From: Candidatus Woesearchaeota archaeon
GTDB lineage: Archaea > Nanobdellota > Nanobdellia > Woesearchaeales > UBA525
Length of the DNA stretch: 64,000 nucleotides
Direction of reading: 5' to 3'
NCBI GenBank assembly: GCA_028818155.1
Contig: JAPPOH010000001.1
Coordinates: 192,598-256,597, forward strand
Positions 5,366 to 41,954 of the stretch are shown piece after piece. The notes under the pieces were generated by a model. That model did not search any database and was not told the origin of the DNA. It was given only the letters and a program-made list of their open reading frames with translations. Each line of letters starts with the position of its first letter. Within the stretch, counting starts at the first letter, position 1. A program made the position numbers and the translations under genes.

Positions 5366-5775
5366 AATTGCTTGTCGCCATTGTGTCTGCGTGGCTCGTT
5401 GCGAACGTGTGCAAGGTCATTTCTACGAGTATTCGGACGAAGGTGGTTGACTGGCAGGTCGTGTTTTTTGCTGGCGGCATGCCGAGTGTGCACACGACGT
5501 TGGTCACCGCACTCGTAACAAGCTTAGCCTTGTCTGAAGGGCTGACTGCTGTCACTGTTGCCTCGATTGTGTTCGCGTCGTTGTTCGTCTATGATGCGAT
5601 GACACTTCGGCGTGCGGTTGCGGAACATAACGCGATTTTGCGATGGGTGCATACGCATTTGAATGTGCAGGTTGCGAAATCATTAGAGCGGAAAGGGGGG
5701 ATTGGACACACGCCACTCGAGGTCGTCGCTGGCATCGTGATCGGTGTGCTTGTGCCGTTGCTTGTGTATGCTTGA
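5362..5775 (+). CDS. Divergent PAP2 / DUF212 membrane protein (acid phosphatase/vanadium haloperoxidase-related)
   Basis: GGMPSVHT, VYDAMTLRR and GHTPLEVVAG match the DUF212 signature. The ATG at 5362 overlaps the pssA stop (ATGA). The ORF track offers an upstream alternative start at 5329. Confidence 0.7.
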   Translation: MKLLVAIVSAWLVANVCKVISTSIRTKVVDWQVVFFAGGMPSVHTTLVTALVTSLALSEGLTAVTVASIVFASLFVYDAMTLRRAVAEHNAILRWVHTHLNVQVAKSLERKGGIGHTPLEVVAGIVIGVLVPLLVYA

Positions 5776-6265
5776 TATTCTTGGTCCGTTGTGGTTTTTC
5801 TTGCCTGCTGGCATTGCAAACATGATGCCGATCTTTGCGAATAAACTCTTTGGTCCGGGGCGGCCAATTCATACGGTGTTTGGCGCGCACAAGACGTGGC
5901 AGGGGATTATTTCTGCAACACTTGGCGGGTGGGCGTTTTTCTTGTTGCAGCGACTATTTGACGTGCCGTTTGCTATCGTTGACTATGCGAGCGTCTCGGT
6001 ATTTCTCGGTTTTGGGCTGGCCTTTTTCGCAATAATGGGCGATTTGGTGGAGAGTTTTATGAAACGAAAAATAGGTATTCAGCCAGGGAAGCCGTGGATT
6101 CCATTCGATCAGCTCGATTATGTGGTTGGCGGTCTTCTCGGCTCGTTGTTGTTCGTGCGCTTGGCCCTTGTTGATTACGTGGTGATTCTTGTCGCGTGTT
6201 TCCTCGCGGTATTCGTGGTGAGTCGCGTTGGGTATATGACGGGGCTTCGGAAGGAGAAGTATTAG
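5768..6265 (+). CDS. carS: CDP-archaeol synthase (CDP-2,3-bis-O-geranylgeranyl-sn-glycerol synthase, DUF46)
   Basis: FLPAGIANMMPIF, HKTWQG, GDLVESFMKRKIGIQPGKPWIPFDQLDYV. The ATG at 5768 overlaps the DUF212 gene stop by 8 nt. Confidence 0.8.
   Translation: MLDILGPLWFFLPAGIANMMPIFANKLFGPGRPIHTVFGAHKTWQGIISATLGGWAFFLLQRLFDVPFAIVDYASVSVFLGFGLAFFAIMGDLVESFMKRKIGIQPGKPWIPFDQLDYVVGGLLGSLLFVRLALVDYVVILVACFLAVFVVSRVGYMTGLRKEKY
6236..6265. repeat. 30-bp direct repeat, copy 1 (the last 30 nt of carS including its stop codon)
   Basis: ATGACGGGGCTTCGGAAGGAGAAGTATTAG is identical to 7690-7719. Confidence 0.95.
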
Positions 6266-6603
6266 CGGGGTTTGGAGTCTTGCGAAAGTGATATTTTGAG
6301 AGCTCGTTTGTATAGATTTGAATATACTTTGGCAAGTTCATCTCGGGATAGGTCATTGATGAAATCGTTAAAATCTGAAACTCCTCGAACTCCAAGTCCG
6401 GAAAATCTTCCGTAGCAGTCTCCTTTATGTTCTTCGATTATGTGTTCCCTTTGAAGGTTGTACACGGGACCGCCACGACGTTCATCCTGCCTGCTGAGAA
6501 CCAAATAGGGTTTGTCGATATCTCTTCCGAGTTCTCTAATTGCCTCTCGGTAGTTTTCCTCAATCCTGTTTTCCAGTTCTCTTAGGTTTTCTGGTATTTC
6601 CAT
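6262..6603 (-). CDS. Hypothetical protein (113 aa) in the cassette
   Basis: ORF preceded by GGAGGAAAAAATG (Shine-Dalgarno-like). No recognisable motif. Confidence 0.5.
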   Translation of the reverse strand: MEIPENLRELENRIEENYREAIRELGRDIDKPYLVLSRQDERRGGPVYNLQREHIIEEHKGDCYGRFSGLGVRGVSDFNDFINDLSRDELAKVYSNLYKRALKISLSQDSKPR

Positions 6604-7689
6604 TTTTTCCTCCGTTCAATCACTAGCAAGGAAATGGCTGCAGATTGATAAAAATTCTTATTGAATTTCTTTACTTTTACAAAATATTTATAAATATAAT
6701 AGTAATTGTAAAGAAAATGAAAGGATTAGATGTGTACTCCTCGAAAATACTGTATGAACTTGATAAGCAATCGAATATGCCACTGAAAGCTCTAGCAAAG
6801 AAGATCAGAAGATCAAAGCAGTTTGTCCTGTACAGAATCAAGAAGTTGGAGAAAGAAGGCATAATTACTAGCTACAATGCAATCGTCGACATGTCAAAAC
6901 TTGGATTCTTCTCATTCAGAATCTATTTCAAAATGCGACAGTTTACCAAGAGAGATGTCAACGAATTTGTCGATTTTTTGAAGCGTGAGTTTGACTATAT
7001 TTGGGCAATTACAACAATGCACGGAATGTGGGACATTGCAGTGTTTCTCGGTATCAAAACAATTGGCGATCTTCAGATTTTTTGGGATACTGTGCTGTTG
7101 AAGTATAACAAGCACATTAAAGAGTATACTGTATCTGTATATGCGCCAATATTTAATTTTAACAGGTTATTTACAGGCGCAAAGACGAGCGAATTCCAGA
7201 CGAGAGTATATGGTGAAGGAGACTTGGTTGACGTTGACGAGCTCGACTGGAAACTTATTCAGTTCTATGCACCGAACGTGCGAGCATCTGCCTTGGAGAT
7301 CAGTAAAACACTTGGTGTATCTGCGGACACTGTGCGAAAGCGCATTAAGAATCTTGAGAACGCGAACGTAATCGTCGGATACAAAATCGGAGTGAACCTG
7401 AAAAAGTTAGGCTATACCTCATACAGATTGGACTTTGATCTTCTCTCAACAACGGAGAACAAGAGACTTTTTGAGTTTTGCAGACAACACGAGAAAATTT
7501 ATCAAGTCAACAACGCGATTGGTGGAGCAAATTACGAAATTGAAGTGTTGGTGAAAGATGAGCATGAACTCCACGATTTGATTGAAGATATCAAAGATGC
7601 GTTTGCTGATGTTGTAGAAGATATTCGCTATTTCAGTTTTTCAACATTCCACCAACTAAAATATATTCCTGATTGAAGTTTCTGTCTAC
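6266..7689. mobile_element. AT-rich 1.4 kb inserted cassette bounded by the 30-bp direct repeats, with no recombinase inside
   Basis: It is flanked by perfect 30-bp direct repeats. Hand GC counts of single 60-nt lines give about 35% in cassette coding DNA (line 6901) against about 55% in carS (line 6121). It carries two genes. Confidence 0.6.
6717..7676 (+). CDS. Tandem (duplicated) Lrp/AsnC-family transcription regulator
   Basis: Two HTH plus ligand-domain units in one chain: LDKQSNMPLKALAKKIRRSKQFVLYRIKKLEKEGII and APNVRASALEISKTLGVSADTVRKRIKNLENANVI. TATA TTTATAAATA at 6687-6696 is centred about 27 nt before the ATG at 6717. Confidence 0.8.
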   Translation: MKGLDVYSSKILYELDKQSNMPLKALAKKIRRSKQFVLYRIKKLEKEGIITSYNAIVDMSKLGFFSFRIYFKMRQFTKRDVNEFVDFLKREFDYIWAITTMHGMWDIAVFLGIKTIGDLQIFWDTVLLKYNKHIKEYTVSVYAPIFNFNRLFTGAKTSEFQTRVYGEGDLVDVDELDWKLIQFYAPNVRASALEISKTLGVSADTVRKRIKNLENANVIVGYKIGVNLKKLGYTSYRLDFDLLSTTENKRLFEFCRQHEKIYQVNNAIGGANYEIEVLVKDEHELHDLIEDIKDAFADVVEDIRYFSFSTFHQLKYIPD

Positions 7690-7719
7690 ATGACGGGGCT
7701 TCGGAAGGAGAAGTATTAG
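7690..7719. repeat. 30-bp direct repeat, copy 2
   Basis: Identical to 6236-6265. Confidence 0.95.
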
Positions 7720-7767
7720 GTGTGTTGGGGGCTACACTTACGCAAACGTTTCTATTGGGGGACACAT

Positions 7768-8019
7768 TTACAGTTGCTTCAACAAATCTTTCCCTTTTTT
7801 CGTTAACTCATAGAACCGGAAAAAGTGCGCGTCTTCCGTGATGCAGTGGACGAGTTTCTTCTCTTTCAATTCCGCGAGTGCGTTACTCACATTAGAGGTA
7901 CTAATTTTGCATTCTTGTGCGATTTGTTTGGGTGTTTTCGCCTCTGTGAGTGCGCGCATGACTGCATGCCGTCTCCTTCCCCGCAGGACGAAGCTGATCA
8001 TTGGATAGTCCTTTTTCAC
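7768..8019 (-). CDS. Small winged-helix DNA-binding regulator (ArsR/MarR-like)
   Basis: 83 aa. TPKQIAQECKISTSNVSNALAELKEKKLV is a typical HTH followed by a wing. Confidence 0.65.
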   Translation of the reverse strand: MKKDYPMISFVLRGRRRHAVMRALTEAKTPKQIAQECKISTSNVSNALAELKEKKLVHCITEDAHFFRFYELTKKGKDLLKQL

Positions 8020-8258
8020 GTCTCGTATGGTGACATCGCTTTATTACTTCCTTGCCATTGATGAAATACTTATGAAATACTAAATAGAGCAGAATATATT
8101 GTACACACATCGAATCCTTATACACGTAGTGTTTCCACACTGCAGGAGATGCTAAAAATACGTGAGAAATACCAAAGAAATACCAAAAATTATAAAGGGG
8201 TGCGCATTTCCGTTTTTCTAATGGTGCTTCGGCACTGTTCATAGGTCAAATTCGGAAT

Positions 8259-8293
8259 GTTTCCGGTATCTCCCGGAAACCTTCCGGGTTTTT
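8259..8293 (+). promoter_or_regulatory. Three-segment alternative hairpin (TTCCGG / CCGGAA / TTCCGG) followed by GTTTTT
   Basis: GTTTCCGG-tatctc-CCGGAAAC (8-bp stem) shares its 3' arm with CCGGAA-acc-TTCCGG, which is followed by GTTTTT. It lies 57-91 nt upstream of the 8350 start. Confidence 0.4.
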
Positions 8294-8349
8294 CATCGAT
8301 ACTCAATTAAAGAACACCGCATTACCATGCAAAACAGGCCAAAACGGCC

Positions 8350-10143
8350 ATGGGGGATACAATGAACAAACTACTCGCATACGCCACGGTACTCTTACTC
8401 GTACCACTCGTCCTCGCGATGCCGCGAGGAACACTTGAAGAACGACAAGCATTCCACGATACTGTCTCACTCGCATCGAACACGTACACATGCGGGGACG
8501 GCATTCGTTGCGAAGCGTACATCAACATTCCGATTCGTGATCGAAAAGCGATCGCGCGCAACAAAGATATTTTCTTCAGCCTTGCATACCTCAACGGCAC
8601 AGAAAGTAACTACACGATCAACTATGAAGTGGGACACTACGAGAAGAAGAAAGAGCGAACATATGTACAACGCTGTCGTACCGTGCAAGAGCGGAATGGC
8701 TCAACAGGCGAGCGGTGCAGAAATGTCCCGCGAACAAAGCAGGTGCGAGAGCTCGTGTGGCACGGCCAACACTTCGTGCCGGGCATGAATGTCTTACACC
8801 TGTGGTCTGATGACAAACCAGCAGATGCAATCGTCGACTGGAACTTCCGTATACCTGAAACGCCTGTGCAGATGCGACACAAGAACACAGAGAAGATGTT
8901 CCGCACAGACTTTGACACGCGCGTGAAGGGCTGGGCGATCTGGGGGGACCCTGACTGGGAGTGGCAGAATAGTAGCTTCAGTAAACGACGAACATTCGCA
9001 CTTGACGAAAGCGGAAGGACAAACACACCGGTCCTTGTCACGATCGCAGACCTCAGCACAACGGGGAATGGATTTGCAGTCTACACAGAGCAAGACGAGC
9101 AGAAACCACTCACGTACCTTGATGCAGAGGAACACATCACAACACCGGGGAACGCAACACACATACTCTTCACGGCTGATAGTGGGGAGACCTACTTTCT
9201 CTATTATGAGAACACAACAGCAGTCCCAGGAACAAACGCCTTTCTCGTCTGGGACAGGTTCACTGACTCGACAAATAGTCTGCCATGGACGGAGCGCCTT
9301 GGCTCGTGGACCTATACAACTTACGCGAACAAAGCAGGCATAGGCCACGTGACGTACGATGTAGCGAACCTCTATGACTACAAAGATCTTGGCACGTTCG
9401 CCCGCGTCCTCTACACGACAAGAGGGGATGGCCTCAGGTTCGCGTGGCGTGACAGTACTACAGGAAATTTAGGCGCTGACGGCTCACGGATGGTTTGTGA
9501 CTTCGGCCCGAGCAAGTACCGATGCTTCGGTAACGGGTACGCAGACCTGCGCGGGAATGGTGGCGCAACGAATGTGTGGCATGATTACACGTTCCGCATT
9601 GGGACGTCAGGGCTCATCCTCTATGAAGATGAAGGCGGCCCACTCATCACATTCACCACGCCAAACGATGCGCAAATCGGCCCCGCAACACAAAACCGTG
9701 TTGGGATGGGCGGACAAGAATCTGGCGCTGGACGGTTTGATGACTATGCGCTCTGGAACTGGACGCTCCTCGGCAGAGTCAACTTTTACGACAGTCTGAG
9801 TACCACCTACCAGCTTGGCGCTGAACAAGGCGGGAGCAGTATTGATGAGGAAGCTGCACGAGCAGCGATCTACGACGGACTAAACCAATCAGTGCTCGCA
9901 GGAAACTATAGTGCAAGCGAAGACCAGGACCTTGTCGTCAGGTACCAGAACGGCACGATCATCGAGGACACCCTAGATATCTTCGTTGCGAACGGCATGA
10001 CGCGCTGGGCGTTCGACTACACAAACACGACAGCGACAAGCATCGTGAACATCACACCTGCCTTTTACGTGTGGACAGGGATGGGGATGACCGCATCAGA
10101 GATCATTGACAGCGTACGGACATTCGTGGATGGAACTGCATGA
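8350..10143 (+). CDS. Secreted DUF2341/LamG-like protein
   Basis: Signal-like MNKLLAYATVLLLVPLVLA. TYFLYYENT resembles the DUF2341 YYGN block. GRFDDYALWNWTL resembles a laminin-G/ConA-like C-terminal strand. Many N-x-S/T sequons. Confidence 0.45.
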   Translation: MGDTMNKLLAYATVLLLVPLVLAMPRGTLEERQAFHDTVSLASNTYTCGDGIRCEAYINIPIRDRKAIARNKDIFFSLAYLNGTESNYTINYEVGHYEKKKERTYVQRCRTVQERNGSTGERCRNVPRTKQVRELVWHGQHFVPGMNVLHLWSDDKPADAIVDWNFRIPETPVQMRHKNTEKMFRTDFDTRVKGWAIWGDPDWEWQNSSFSKRRTFALDESGRTNTPVLVTIADLSTTGNGFAVYTEQDEQKPLTYLDAEEHITTPGNATHILFTADSGETYFLYYENTTAVPGTNAFLVWDRFTDSTNSLPWTERLGSWTYTTYANKAGIGHVTYDVANLYDYKDLGTFARVLYTTRGDGLRFAWRDSTTGNLGADGSRMVCDFGPSKYRCFGNGYADLRGNGGATNVWHDYTFRIGTSGLILYEDEGGPLITFTTPNDAQIGPATQNRVGMGGQESGAGRFDDYALWNWTLLGRVNFYDSLSTTYQLGAEQGGSSIDEEAARAAIYDGLNQSVLAGNYSASEDQDLVVRYQNGTIIEDTLDIFVANGMTRWAFDYTNTTATSIVNITPAFYVWTGMGMTASEIIDSVRTFVDGTA

Positions 10144-26760: not shown

Positions 26761-27963
26761 CTAGCGCGGCTTGAGCATCGGATCGAGGAGCTCAGGCTCG
26801 TCAGGCCGCCGGTCAACTAGCAGCCGATTGAGCAGTTGGTGCAGCTTTTCTTCGATTGCTGCGATGCGCTCGTCCACGAGTGCCTTCTCTCGTTCCATTG
26901 CGCCAAGTTGTCGCTCAAGCGCAGTCTTCGCTTCCGAAGTGAGGAGGTCTTCATCAGTGATGGTGTCGTGCATCCCGAGGAACTCGGTGTAGTACGCAAC
27001 CATGTCTGCTGTGGTCCAGCCGAACCTGTGCATGAACGCGCTTTCGTGTTTGTATTTTGGGCGCCAGTAGCACGCGCTTGAGTGTCGGAAGTCGTACAGG
27101 GTGAGCTCTGGGTAGGTCTTGCCGGCTGCACTCGTTCCGTCGCCGAGGACTCGACTTCCGAGGGCCTTGAGGTAGCGATTCGCGACGGAGGGTGAGAAGT
27201 CGAAAATGTACTGGTCCGGTTTGAGTCCTTGGTCGTGGATGTATTCGCGCAAGAGCGGCGGGCAGTGGAGCAGGGTGATCTTCCTGCCGAAGGTCTTGCT
27301 GGTTTCCTCGCGAATGTGGAGCTGCGTGCAATCTTCTGTGAGATCGCGGACGCGGACGTTGACGAGTTCGGTCGGCGCGCGGATGCCGCTGTCGTAGAGA
27401 AAGCGGATGAGGACTTGGTACTTGTAATTCGCGTGTCGGCAGAGTTTCTCGACTTCCTGCTCGGTGAGGTAGACCCAGCGGGGCTTCTCGCACCGGGTGT
27501 CGAGTTCTTCGCAGATGTCAACAACGGTCTGTCCGCCTCGCTTTTTTACCTTCATGTGCCAGTGCCAGAAGGTTTTGAAGACTTTGACGTAGTCGCCGGT
27601 GCTCTTGTACTTCTCGCCGTCGCGGCGGCGGATCTCTCCGTTGCGCATGCGGCTGAAGCAGGCGTGGGCATGCGATTCGGTTGCGTTGGTCAGGGGGTCA
27701 ACGTCGAGATGTGCAGAGAACAGCCTGGCGAGGAAGCTCAGTTTTGTCCGGAGTGCGTTGAGGTGGAGAAAGCTCCGGCCGCCTTTCTTGCTGCTCCTTG
27801 AGATGTTCCTGCCGATCTCCATGTCCGCGAGGAACGCGCGGAGGCACGCGGAGTTCGCACTGCTCACACCCGGGATGCCGTCGGCTGTTGCTTGCTGCCA
27901 TCGCCGGTACTGGGCTTCGCTTTGGTATGGGTCTCGCTTCACGTGTTTGTTCGACGGGTGCAC
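26761..27963 (-). CDS. Tyrosine recombinase / phage-type integrase
   Basis: C-terminal catalytic region LTLYDFRHSSACYW...HRFGWTTADMVAYYTEF (H-x-x-R and terminal Tyr). It lies adjacent to the tRNA 3' end. Confidence 0.8.
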   Translation of the reverse strand: MHPSNKHVKRDPYQSEAQYRRWQQATADGIPGVSSANSACLRAFLADMEIGRNISRSSKKGGRSFLHLNALRTKLSFLARLFSAHLDVDPLTNATESHAHACFSRMRNGEIRRRDGEKYKSTGDYVKVFKTFWHWHMKVKKRGGQTVVDICEELDTRCEKPRWVYLTEQEVEKLCRHANYKYQVLIRFLYDSGIRAPTELVNVRVRDLTEDCTQLHIREETSKTFGRKITLLHCPPLLREYIHDQGLKPDQYIFDFSPSVANRYLKALGSRVLGDGTSAAGKTYPELTLYDFRHSSACYWRPKYKHESAFMHRFGWTTADMVAYYTEFLGMHDTITDEDLLTSEAKTALERQLGAMEREKALVDERIAAIEEKLHQLLNRLLVDRRPDEPELLDPMLKPR

Positions 27964-28023
27964 TGCCTTTAAGGCGTTGCACTGGCAAGGCTGGTATCTC
28001 CTGAGAATGCGCGGTTCGTATCA

Positions 28024-28095
28024 AGCCCCCGGAGAGATTTGAACTCCCGACCTGCGGTTTACAAAACCGCCGCTCTACCGCTGAGCTACGGAGGC
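28024..28095 (-). tRNA. tRNA-Thr (anticodon UGU), no encoded CCA
   Basis: Hand-folded cloverleaf: GCCTCCG/CGGGGGC acceptor, GCTC/GAGC D stem, GCGGT-TTTGTAA-ACCGC anticodon arm, GGGAG-TTCAAAT-CTCTC T arm. Confidence 0.9.
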
Positions 28096-41088: not shown

Positions 41089-41119
41089 GCGCGTTTTTTA
41101 TGAGAAAGTAGTTAAAGAA
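41089..41119 (+). repeat. 31-nt promoter module, copy 1
   Basis: GCGCGTTTTTTATGAGAAAGTAGTTAAAGAA is identical to 41924-41954. It contains TATA-like GTTAAAGA about 24 nt before the ATG at 41138. Confidence 0.85.
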
Positions 41120-41533: not shown

Positions 41534-41924
41534 CGAGTACGTTGATTTTGGCGCAAGAAAACCGAACGTTGTTGTGTATGAATCGCTCGATGATAATCAC
41601 GATCCTAAGAGAGGCATATGGCCTTCTCTTTTGCACAGCGGCTTAGCAGGGGATTTTGATGTTGAGATCTATAGTAGCGTAGAGCGTCTCACTCAGCGCA
41701 TCAACGCATCCAGAATGTACCCTGATGTCGTTGCGTGTAGGGTGCGGACGGATGAAGAATTTGATACATTGCGCGATCTTACGTTCATGACTGACATCCC
41801 TTTTGTTGGTTTCGTTGACACACTGAACTCGAAGTTATCTGCTCGAGTGCAAACAAGAATGAAGGTGCAATCGGTAAAACATGGCTTGCCCGCGGATGAA
41901 GTGCGAGCGATGCTCGGCAGATAG
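41517..41924 (+). CDS. Hypothetical small protein, possibly a degenerate receiver-like fold
   Basis: NVVVYESLDD...PDVVACRV...IPFVGFVD. Overlaps the upstream gene by 17 nt. Confidence 0.4.
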   Translation: MQMGSSEYVDFGARKPNVVVYESLDDNHDPKRGIWPSLLHSGLAGDFDVEIYSSVERLTQRINASRMYPDVVACRVRTDEEFDTLRDLTFMTDIPFVGFVDTLNSKLSARVQTRMKVQSVKHGLPADEVRAMLGR

Positions 41925-41954
41925 CGCGTTTTTTATGAGAAAGTAGTTAAAGAA
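41924..41954 (+). repeat. 31-nt promoter module, copy 2
   Basis: Identical to 41089-41119. It begins at the last base of the stop codon of the preceding gene and ends 19 nt before the ATG at 41973. Confidence 0.85.

Follow-up and report, generated by a model that had tools for sequence, protein, structure and literature searches.

A probable integrase-less, att-flanked acquired cassette at the 3' end of carS, one of at least nine such inserts in a Woesearchaeal genome

In a 64,000-nucleotide stretch of the Candidatus Woesearchaeota archaeon assembly GCA_028818155.1 (contig JAPPOH010000001.1, positions 192,598 to 256,597; here called the window), carS, the gene for CDP-archaeol synthase, is followed by a 1424-bp insert that is most likely a small acquired cassette of a known kind: flanked by repeats of the attachment-site (att) type, devoid of an integrase, and one of at least nine such inserts in the genome. 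That genome (G000) is metagenome-assembled, 1.64 Mb long in 17 contigs and 87% complete, and the window lies on its contig C15, recorded also as ERZ23496502 (scaffold_4 of SAMN13943220). The 30-mer ATGACGGGGCTTCGGAAGGAGAAGTATTAG, comprising the final nine codons of carS and the TAG stop, stands at 6236-6265 and again, as an exact (30/30) direct repeat, at 7690-7719; the duplication had been pointed out in an earlier note on this DNA, and we find it as described. Searching the genome for the 30-mer, a check that the note proposed, returned exactly these two copies, with no third having up to 3 mismatches in the window or in the 1.64 Mb: the pair is unique, and the chance expectation for a second copy is ~3e-12. 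Identity beyond the 30 bp amounts only to 'TA' and one mismatch leftward (33 bp with one mismatch), then to 10/24 on both sides, and a degenerate third copy of the carS end was sought downstream and not found. The locus is laid out as follows.

5768-6265, plus strand: carS, CDP-archaeol synthase (Pfam CarS-like, 1.8e-17); the 165-aa form is the gene called on the public contig
6236-6265, plus strand: left 30-bp repeat (attL-like), the carS end including TAG; the stop codon of the convergent 113-aa open reading frame (ORF) lies inside it (6262-6264)
6262-6603, minus strand: 113-aa orphan gene (ORFan), called also on the public contig, with GGAG 5 nt before its ATG and a TTTTTATC box ~45 nt upstream
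6266-7689, no strand: the insert, 1424 bp, 38.6% GC, filled by two genes and their common promoter region
6604-6716, no strand: divergent promoter region, 113 bp, 23.9% GC, with TATA-like boxes
6717-7676, plus strand: fused double Lrp/AsnC-type regulator, 319 aa, with winged helix-turn-helix (wHTH) modules at residues 8-51 and 174-214
7690-7719, plus strand: right 30-bp repeat (attR-like), non-coding; the Lrp stop is 13 nt to its left, and a convergent wHTH gene has its 3' end beyond it
7768-8019, convergent: 83-aa wHTH gene, its 3' end downstream of the right repeat

The left copy of the 30-mer is the native end of carS, since the CarS C-terminus (GYMTGLRKEKY, then the stop) aligns to its last residue with 16 homologues. 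The gene probably starts at the ATG at 5768, which overlaps the upstream stop (the longest ORF begins at 5744), and it closes an operon made up of psd, a CDP-alcohol phosphatidyltransferase gene, a DUF212-PAP2 gene and carS itself. In a same-genus genome, G004, the order psd-pssA-PAP2-carS is kept, with a convergent 491-aa gene directly after carS and no cassette; the two nearest CarS relatives (best 49% identity) have an LPG-synthase-like gene after carS, likewise with no cassette. A CarS closer than 49% identity was not found in 40 related genomes or among 5.8 billion proteins, and gene order downstream of carS is not conserved among the relatives compared. The predicted empty-site junction reads GTTGGGTAT-30-mer-GTGTGTTGGGGGC, in which GTTGGGTAT precedes the left copy and GTGTGTTGGGGGC follows the right.

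That eight more inserts are built in the same way speaks for an att-type origin rather than chance. The whole genome was scanned for exact direct repeats that stand isolated, have unrelated flanks and lie 250-8000 nt apart. Of 23 such repeats of at least 18 nt, nine have one copy at a gene or tRNA 3' end, oriented as an insertion immediately after it would require, where ~0.8 would be expected (p ~4e-8). The eight inserts found besides that of carS measure 0.5-1.8 kb between repeats of 18-33 nt and are mostly lower in GC than their flanks; none has a recombinase and several carry toxin-antitoxin genes. Their targets are these.

trpA (G000 C6:7837-9648; L038:3338-5149): the last 29 nt and 4 nt more form a 33-mer, AATTCGTAACACTTATGAAAGCACGATGAACTG, repeated 1779 bp downstream
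Nucleotidyltransferase gene end: 26-nt repeat; the insert is a HEPN/MNT pair
metK-like gene (S-adenosylmethionine synthetase, so named by sequence reading rather than by a family-library check): 21-nt core
220-aa membrane-protein gene: 20-nt core
317-aa gene: 19-20-nt repeat
tRNA-Phe (G000 C14:3526-4227): 19-nt 3' end repeated 683 bp downstream; 128-aa gene
tRNA-Cys (G000 C15:488-1009): 19-nt 3' end repeated 503 bp downstream; 86-aa gene
134-aa gene on contig C8: 18-nt repeat

In 9/9 cases the repeat ends at the stop codon or tRNA end or no more than 4 nt past it, or else 6-9 nt before the stop, with the remaining codons supplied by the insert. Two of the nine targets are the 3' ends of tRNA-Phe and tRNA-Cys, and tRNA 3' ends are a classic integrase target. 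The genes inserted at these two looked, by eye rather than by family search, like a DUF86/HepT-type toxin (128 aa) and a RelE-like toxin (86 aa). The inserts at the metK-like and 220-aa membrane-protein genes (G000 C4:147767-148319 and C4:51420-51994) have a diverged target end as their inner flank: in the first, the insert continues with DFLWEQT against EFPWEKT, and in the second A-L-L-stop follows in both copies, encoded with six synonymous differences. The DNA that came in thus brought a target end of its own; duplication of the target alone would not yield such diverged gene-end copies. A bona fide case was not found in ~400 kb from each of two other Woesearchaeales genomes (one closed), so the scan does not yield such cases by default; what seemed to be one in genome G040 proved to be a tandem of paralogous pilin-like genes.

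The trpA insert is 1.75 kb long at 42% GC and holds a single 485-aa ORFan, its right copy standing directly before a DUF5522 gene; the trpA/DUF5522 locus is not syntenic in same-genus genomes. We considered the 485-aa ORF as a hidden recombinase, but it has no family match, and its AlphaFold2 (AF2) model, at a predicted local distance difference test score (pLDDT) of 34, is uninformative. A tRNA-like stretch in the tail of the insert matches no tRNA gene of the genome. Elsewhere, at G000 C13:238150-241875 (L039:5150-8875), a stack of three toxin-antitoxin-type cassettes follows an 811-aa Peptidase_S74-domain gene. The cargo of the stack is AbiEi/AbiEii, a helix-turn-helix (HTH) gene with a DUF2204-like nucleotidyltransferase, and HEPN/MNT; between the cassettes stand a 46-nt repeat containing a 10-bp palindrome (AGTGACTACA...TGTAGTCACT) and a 26-nt gene-end duplication. 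Within the window, a 31-mer, GCGCGTTTTTTATGAGAAAGTAGTTAAAGAA, which has stops in each of the three frames, is present in two exact copies, at 41089-41119 and 41924-41954, that bracket an 835-bp unit of two ORFs. Two small genes, possibly receiver-domain-like (judged by eye rather than by family search), have their start codons ~18 nt after it, and the pair of repeats looks like either a duplicated promoter/leader or a further cassette boundary.

Recurrence also bears on whether the carS insert could have arisen in assembly or binning, a low-GC fragment or free circle with the 30-mer having been threaded into the carS locus. In favour of such an error, the source is a metagenome-assembled genome of 17 contigs at 87% completeness, and the repeat is short. 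Repeat lengths that vary by locus (18-33 nt), however, correspond to no fixed k-mer overlap; the genome contains no N; a fragment of foreign origin would have to end on both sides in this one unique 30-mer; the stop of the ORFan lies inside the repeat and its reading frame crosses the junction cleanly; target ends are mimicked at the coding level at sister loci; and the arrangement is present on two public contigs, the second with the gene neighbourhood of the window locus. An artefact is accordingly very improbable.

Both genes that the earlier note had read in the cassette, a 113-aa orphan and a fused double Lrp/AsnC regulator, were confirmed, and the similarity searches it suggested gave opposite answers for the two. 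The 113-aa ORF has no match in Pfam, PHROGs or NCBIfam and no homologue among 5.8 billion clustered proteins or 1.84 billion representatives (HMMER); it is predicted to be mostly helical, at low confidence (single-sequence AF2 model, pLDDT 47, unreliable). The regulator belongs to a large orthogroup: >200 proteins from Woese-, Pace- and Nanoarchaeota are 50-60% identical to it. It carries two HTH_24/HTH_AsnC modules (Pfam 3.7e-17 and 1.1e-14) and a weak AsnC_trans_reg match (0.0087), and so has the N-terminal AsnC-type wHTH and RAM/ligand domain by which the Lrp/AsnC family is recognized; NCBIfam LrpA matches at 2.2e-20, below the family cut-off, as expected of a fused double form. The box TTTATAAATA lies at 6687-6696, ~26 nt before the Lrp ATG, and since this distance fits archaeal TATA-box spacing, on which its reading as a promoter box is based, it suggests that the Lrp transcript is leaderless. 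The regulator stop is parted from the right repeat by a 13-bp spacer. No integrase or transposase lies inside, as the note had also maintained: Pfam, PHROGs and NCBIfam find no recombinase domain in the insert, which has neither spare coding room nor integrase remnants.

That the insert is foreign is suggested by its composition, with reservations, and more clearly by the ancestry of its regulator. Its 38.6% GC (orphan 42.7%, intergenic 23.9%, Lrp 38.9%) compares with 50.2% in carS and 47.3% in the genome, and falls in the lowest 0.5% of 1424-bp genome windows (sd 3.0). GC at third codon positions (GC3) is 0.447 for Lrp (29th percentile) and 0.377 for the orphan (11th), against a genome mean of 0.497 (sd 0.086) and 0.57-0.62 in the neighbours; the low GC of the insert owes partly to amino-acid content and the promoter region. 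The contrast of about 35% with 55% GC drawn in the earlier note thus holds in direction and is overstated in size, because GC3 is only mildly low and part of the GC deficit reflects amino-acid content and promoter. In a maximum-likelihood tree the regulator falls in a clade (100/98) with G040, of another family, and several metagenome proteins, while the genes of same-genus genomes G005 and G006 pair with each other elsewhere; the closest relatives of the regulator are found in DNA of 38-43% GC. Because it groups with a different family, apart from its same-genus homologues, the regulator looks like a xenologue, horizontally acquired from another Woesearchaeal lineage. In another Woesearchaeote a 59%-identical double Lrp orthologue (L070:3501-6870; GCA_053532115.1, JAIYPQ010000104.1) lies 1.9 kb upstream of a carS-like gene and adjoins AbiEi/AbiEii and nucleotidyltransferase genes; we take its proximity to the carS-like gene as coincidence.

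Were the arrangement native and old, the regulator always having stood near carS and the second 30-mer being the scar of a local duplication, that proximity would count in its favour, as would the unremarkable GC3 of the regulator. Such a history is nevertheless hard to credit: the tree sets the regulator apart from its same-genus homologues, neither G004 nor the nearest CarS relatives have such a gene after carS, the right copy is still 30/30 identical in spite of being non-coding, and the same architecture recurs at eight unrelated loci.

Repeats that end at stop codons or tRNA ends, tRNA targets and gene-end mimics borne by the element are hallmarks of conservative recombination between an element site and a chromosome site (attP x attB, or a Campbell-type single crossover that takes up a small circle). 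The explanation we favour, to which we give somewhat better than an even chance, is att-type, Campbell-like integration of a small circular cassette by a recombinase acting in trans or since lost, in the manner of a cis-mobilizable element (CIME). A small circular DNA would have carried a 30-bp sequence identical to the carS end, and these two stretches would have been the partners; conservative Campbell-type recombination between them would leave attL and attR and an intact carS; and the recombinase would have been supplied in trans by another element or the host, or lost with the rest of a larger element. The enzyme must have acted in trans or been lost because the cassette encodes no recombinase; this absence, taken with the att-like ends, makes the cassette CIME-like. 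That the intermediate was a circle, what kind of recombinase acted and in which direction events ran are all inferred. The earlier claim of an insertion at a gene 3' end that regenerates the terminus is upheld as to architecture by the native carS end and the eight sister inserts.

The candidates for the recombinase in this genome begin with the integrase gene in the window.

26761-27963, minus strand: 400-aa tyrosine-recombinase-like gene (PHROGs integrase 1e-14; nothing in Pfam at 1e-3), with a GC3 of 0.76, the genome's highest
24990-28095: tRNA-Thr element, ~3 kb, 55.7% GC, a complete small integrative element with an intact integrase
25135-25836, minus strand, and 26082-26531, plus strand: uncharacterized ORFs in the tRNA-Thr element
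G000 C4:100929-101411: XerA-like recombinase

The tRNA-Thr element is bounded by a 14-mer, TCAAGCCCCCGGAG, at 24990-25003 and 28021-28034, the latter being the 3' end of tRNA-Thr(TGT). Lying 17 kb from the carS cassette, it shows that the lineage uses short att cores (14 nt) at tRNA ends. The suggestion that its integrase might have mobilized the carS cassette, also made in the earlier note, finds no support: the enzyme belongs to a GC-rich element of its own with its own att at tRNA-Thr, and nothing links it to the carS 30-mer. In target-gene sense, the carS core (6238-6250) and the tRNA-Thr att (28021-28034) share GGGGCTT (~2%, a rough estimate and not a computed value), a match too weak to link integrase and site. 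The genome also holds two integrase fragments; Cas1/casposase was not found in it. Contig C10, which has a paralogue of the 83-aa wHTH gene, was considered as a helper plasmid and dismissed, having no replication or integration genes.

Several points weigh against the att-type reading. For one small genome to hold nine different cores, recombination of many specificities would be required, or an enzyme indifferent to sequence, and no significant terminal motif is common to the nine inserts, a marginal CGAGGAAA near some right ends not standing out from shuffles. Neither a cognate integrase nor an attP nor a second element with the 30-mer was found in the genome, itself 87% complete, and the 30-mer is absent from the viral and metagenome contig collections searched. 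The window's own integrase has an unrelated att and the opposite composition (GC3 0.76). GC3 of the cassette genes is within the normal genome range. The relatives are too distant, with CarS identity of 49% at best, for an empty-site comparison, and everything rests on one metagenome-assembled genome. Nine unrelated cores without a common arm motif are awkward for classical integrases, and two alternatives therefore stay alive.

The first, and the main rival, is insertion with long target duplication, in which foreign DNA without a mobility gene enters either where the chromosome has a staggered break or through an illegitimate or short-homology event, and ~30 bp of target are duplicated in repair; no attP would ever have existed. 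Nobusato et al. (2000) reportedly described such insertion for restriction-modification genes. In the survey of bacterial restriction-modification genes by Furuta, Abe and Kobayashi (2010), which used a threshold of >30 bp and found no archaeal case, the repeats are long and variable, may overlap a gene 3' end and come with no other mobile element, the cargo is often an addiction-type module and the inserts are often GC-deviant (PMC2853133). Our inserts are similar in having variable repeats (18-33 nt), no common ends, no recombinase and, in several sisters, toxin-antitoxin genes, and the flanks of the carS repeat are only weakly alike (10/24). Yet all nine repeats are tied to stop or tRNA ends instead of being scattered intergenically, a diverged imitation of the gene end comes with two of the inserts, tRNA 3' ends serve as targets in two cases, a situation that Furuta et al. 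ascribe to probable site-specific recombination (PMC2853133), and the carS cargo is not restriction-modification. We regard this origin as unlikely, though well worth keeping in view. Setting the carS cassette itself beside the published cases, it is alike in being small, GC-deviant and without a mobility gene, with a genome-unique direct repeat over a gene 3' end and addiction-type genes in its sisters; it differs in its cargo, a regulator and an ORFan, in a repeat that stands at the lower length limit of the class (exactly 30 bp, or 33 with one mismatch, beside the published threshold of >30 bp), in repeats that end at stop codons or tRNA ends, and in the diverged target end carried by two sister inserts.

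The second alternative dispenses with a fixed site: a small circle would be joined to any chromosomal site with which it has a short identical sequence in common, whether by homologous recombination of the host or by an integrase of low specificity such as the Int-pTN3 type. This would explain nine 'att' sequences without nine integrases, with their unrelated cores and lack of a common arm motif; Int-pTN3, an archaeal integrase, has an activity resembling homologous recombination on identical segments, of at least 104 bp (PMC8371274), and the genome offers an intact integrase, a XerA-like recombinase and integrase fragments. Repeats of 18-33 nt are, however, far below the 104 bp shown for Int-pTN3, and how each circle came by an exact copy of a gene end is left unexplained, so that we consider recombination of this sort decidedly improbable. 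A related and more novel notion, with a small but real chance of being right, is a dedicated and hitherto undescribed route, a dispersed, integron-like gene capture that uses neither attC nor a resident integrase: promoter-bearing cassettes of 0.5-1.8 kb, tagged with 18-33 nt of a host gene or tRNA end, would be integrated by host recombination or by a recombinase needing only identity of the partners, in this Woesearchaeote and perhaps in other ultra-small organisms of the DPANN group or the Candidate Phyla Radiation (CPR).

Integrons proper are excluded as the source by the absence of attC-like hairpins; the junctions fold no better than shuffles (z -0.3 and -1.3). An origin as a transposon, insertion sequence or casposon is excluded, since inverted ends are lacking and the repeat differs in length between loci (18-33 nt), and there is no Cas1 in the genome. 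Our cassettes resemble those of integrons in size (0.5-2 kb), in gene number (one or two), in often carrying toxin-antitoxin genes and in encoding no recombinase of their own; they differ in having their own promoters, in being dispersed over many gene ends where integrons stack theirs at a single attI, and, at carS, in a repeat of 30 bp of the target gene in place of a 7-nt core. The archaeal and bacterial integrative elements that target tRNAs by tyrosine integrases (for example pNOB8/SNJ2-type, tycheposons) encode the integrase themselves and commonly reach several kb or more; with them the carS cassette shares a position at a gene 3' end and a short identical core, but has no integrase, and its core is unrelated to the tRNA-Thr att. 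The nearest parallel to the att-type reading is the CIME, which by definition in the literature on streptococcal integrative and conjugative or mobilizable elements (ICE/IME) keeps attL and attR without integration genes (PMC5704250). The cassette conforms to this in its attL/attR-type repeats, within the 8-60 bp of att direct repeats in integrative elements (PMC5704250), in the regenerated gene 3' end and in lacking integration and transfer genes; like CIMEs, it is presumed to depend on a recombinase from another element. It departs from them in its size of only 1.4 kb, in a dense content of intact genes free of decayed integrase or transfer genes, in that no cognate integrase-bearing element was found, and in its host, a DPANN archaeon with nine different target sites in one 1.6-Mb genome.

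Other repeats lie near the locus. Directly after the right 30-mer, at the 3' end of the 83-aa wHTH gene (7725-7771), are two copies of TTGGGGG(C)ACA(C/T)TTAC, 30 nt apart. At 8248-8291, upstream of a 597-aa secreted-protein gene, a 19-nt inverted repeat, AAATTCGGAATGTTTCCGG / CCGGAAACCTTCCGGGTTT, is possibly an operator; a similar sequence, TTTCGGAAATCTTCCGGATTT, occurs twice on contig C14. An Rfam scan of 5600-8500 gave no match.

DPANN archaea have tiny genomes and, to our knowledge, no conjugation or competence machinery, so that their acquisition of genes is poorly understood. At carS the gain of a cassette would have been clean and recent: a regulator from another Woesearchaeal lineage arrived with an ORFan and left an essential lipid gene undamaged. 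The recurrence of nine inserts weighs more than the single locus, and points to a routine route of integration without an element-borne recombinase. The locus would extend to archaea either integrase-less att-flanked cassettes or insertion with long target duplication, for which the published survey has no archaeal case (PMC2853133). If presence/absence polymorphism of the inserts is confirmed, their 18-33-nt cores would be defined substrates for identifying the recombinase.

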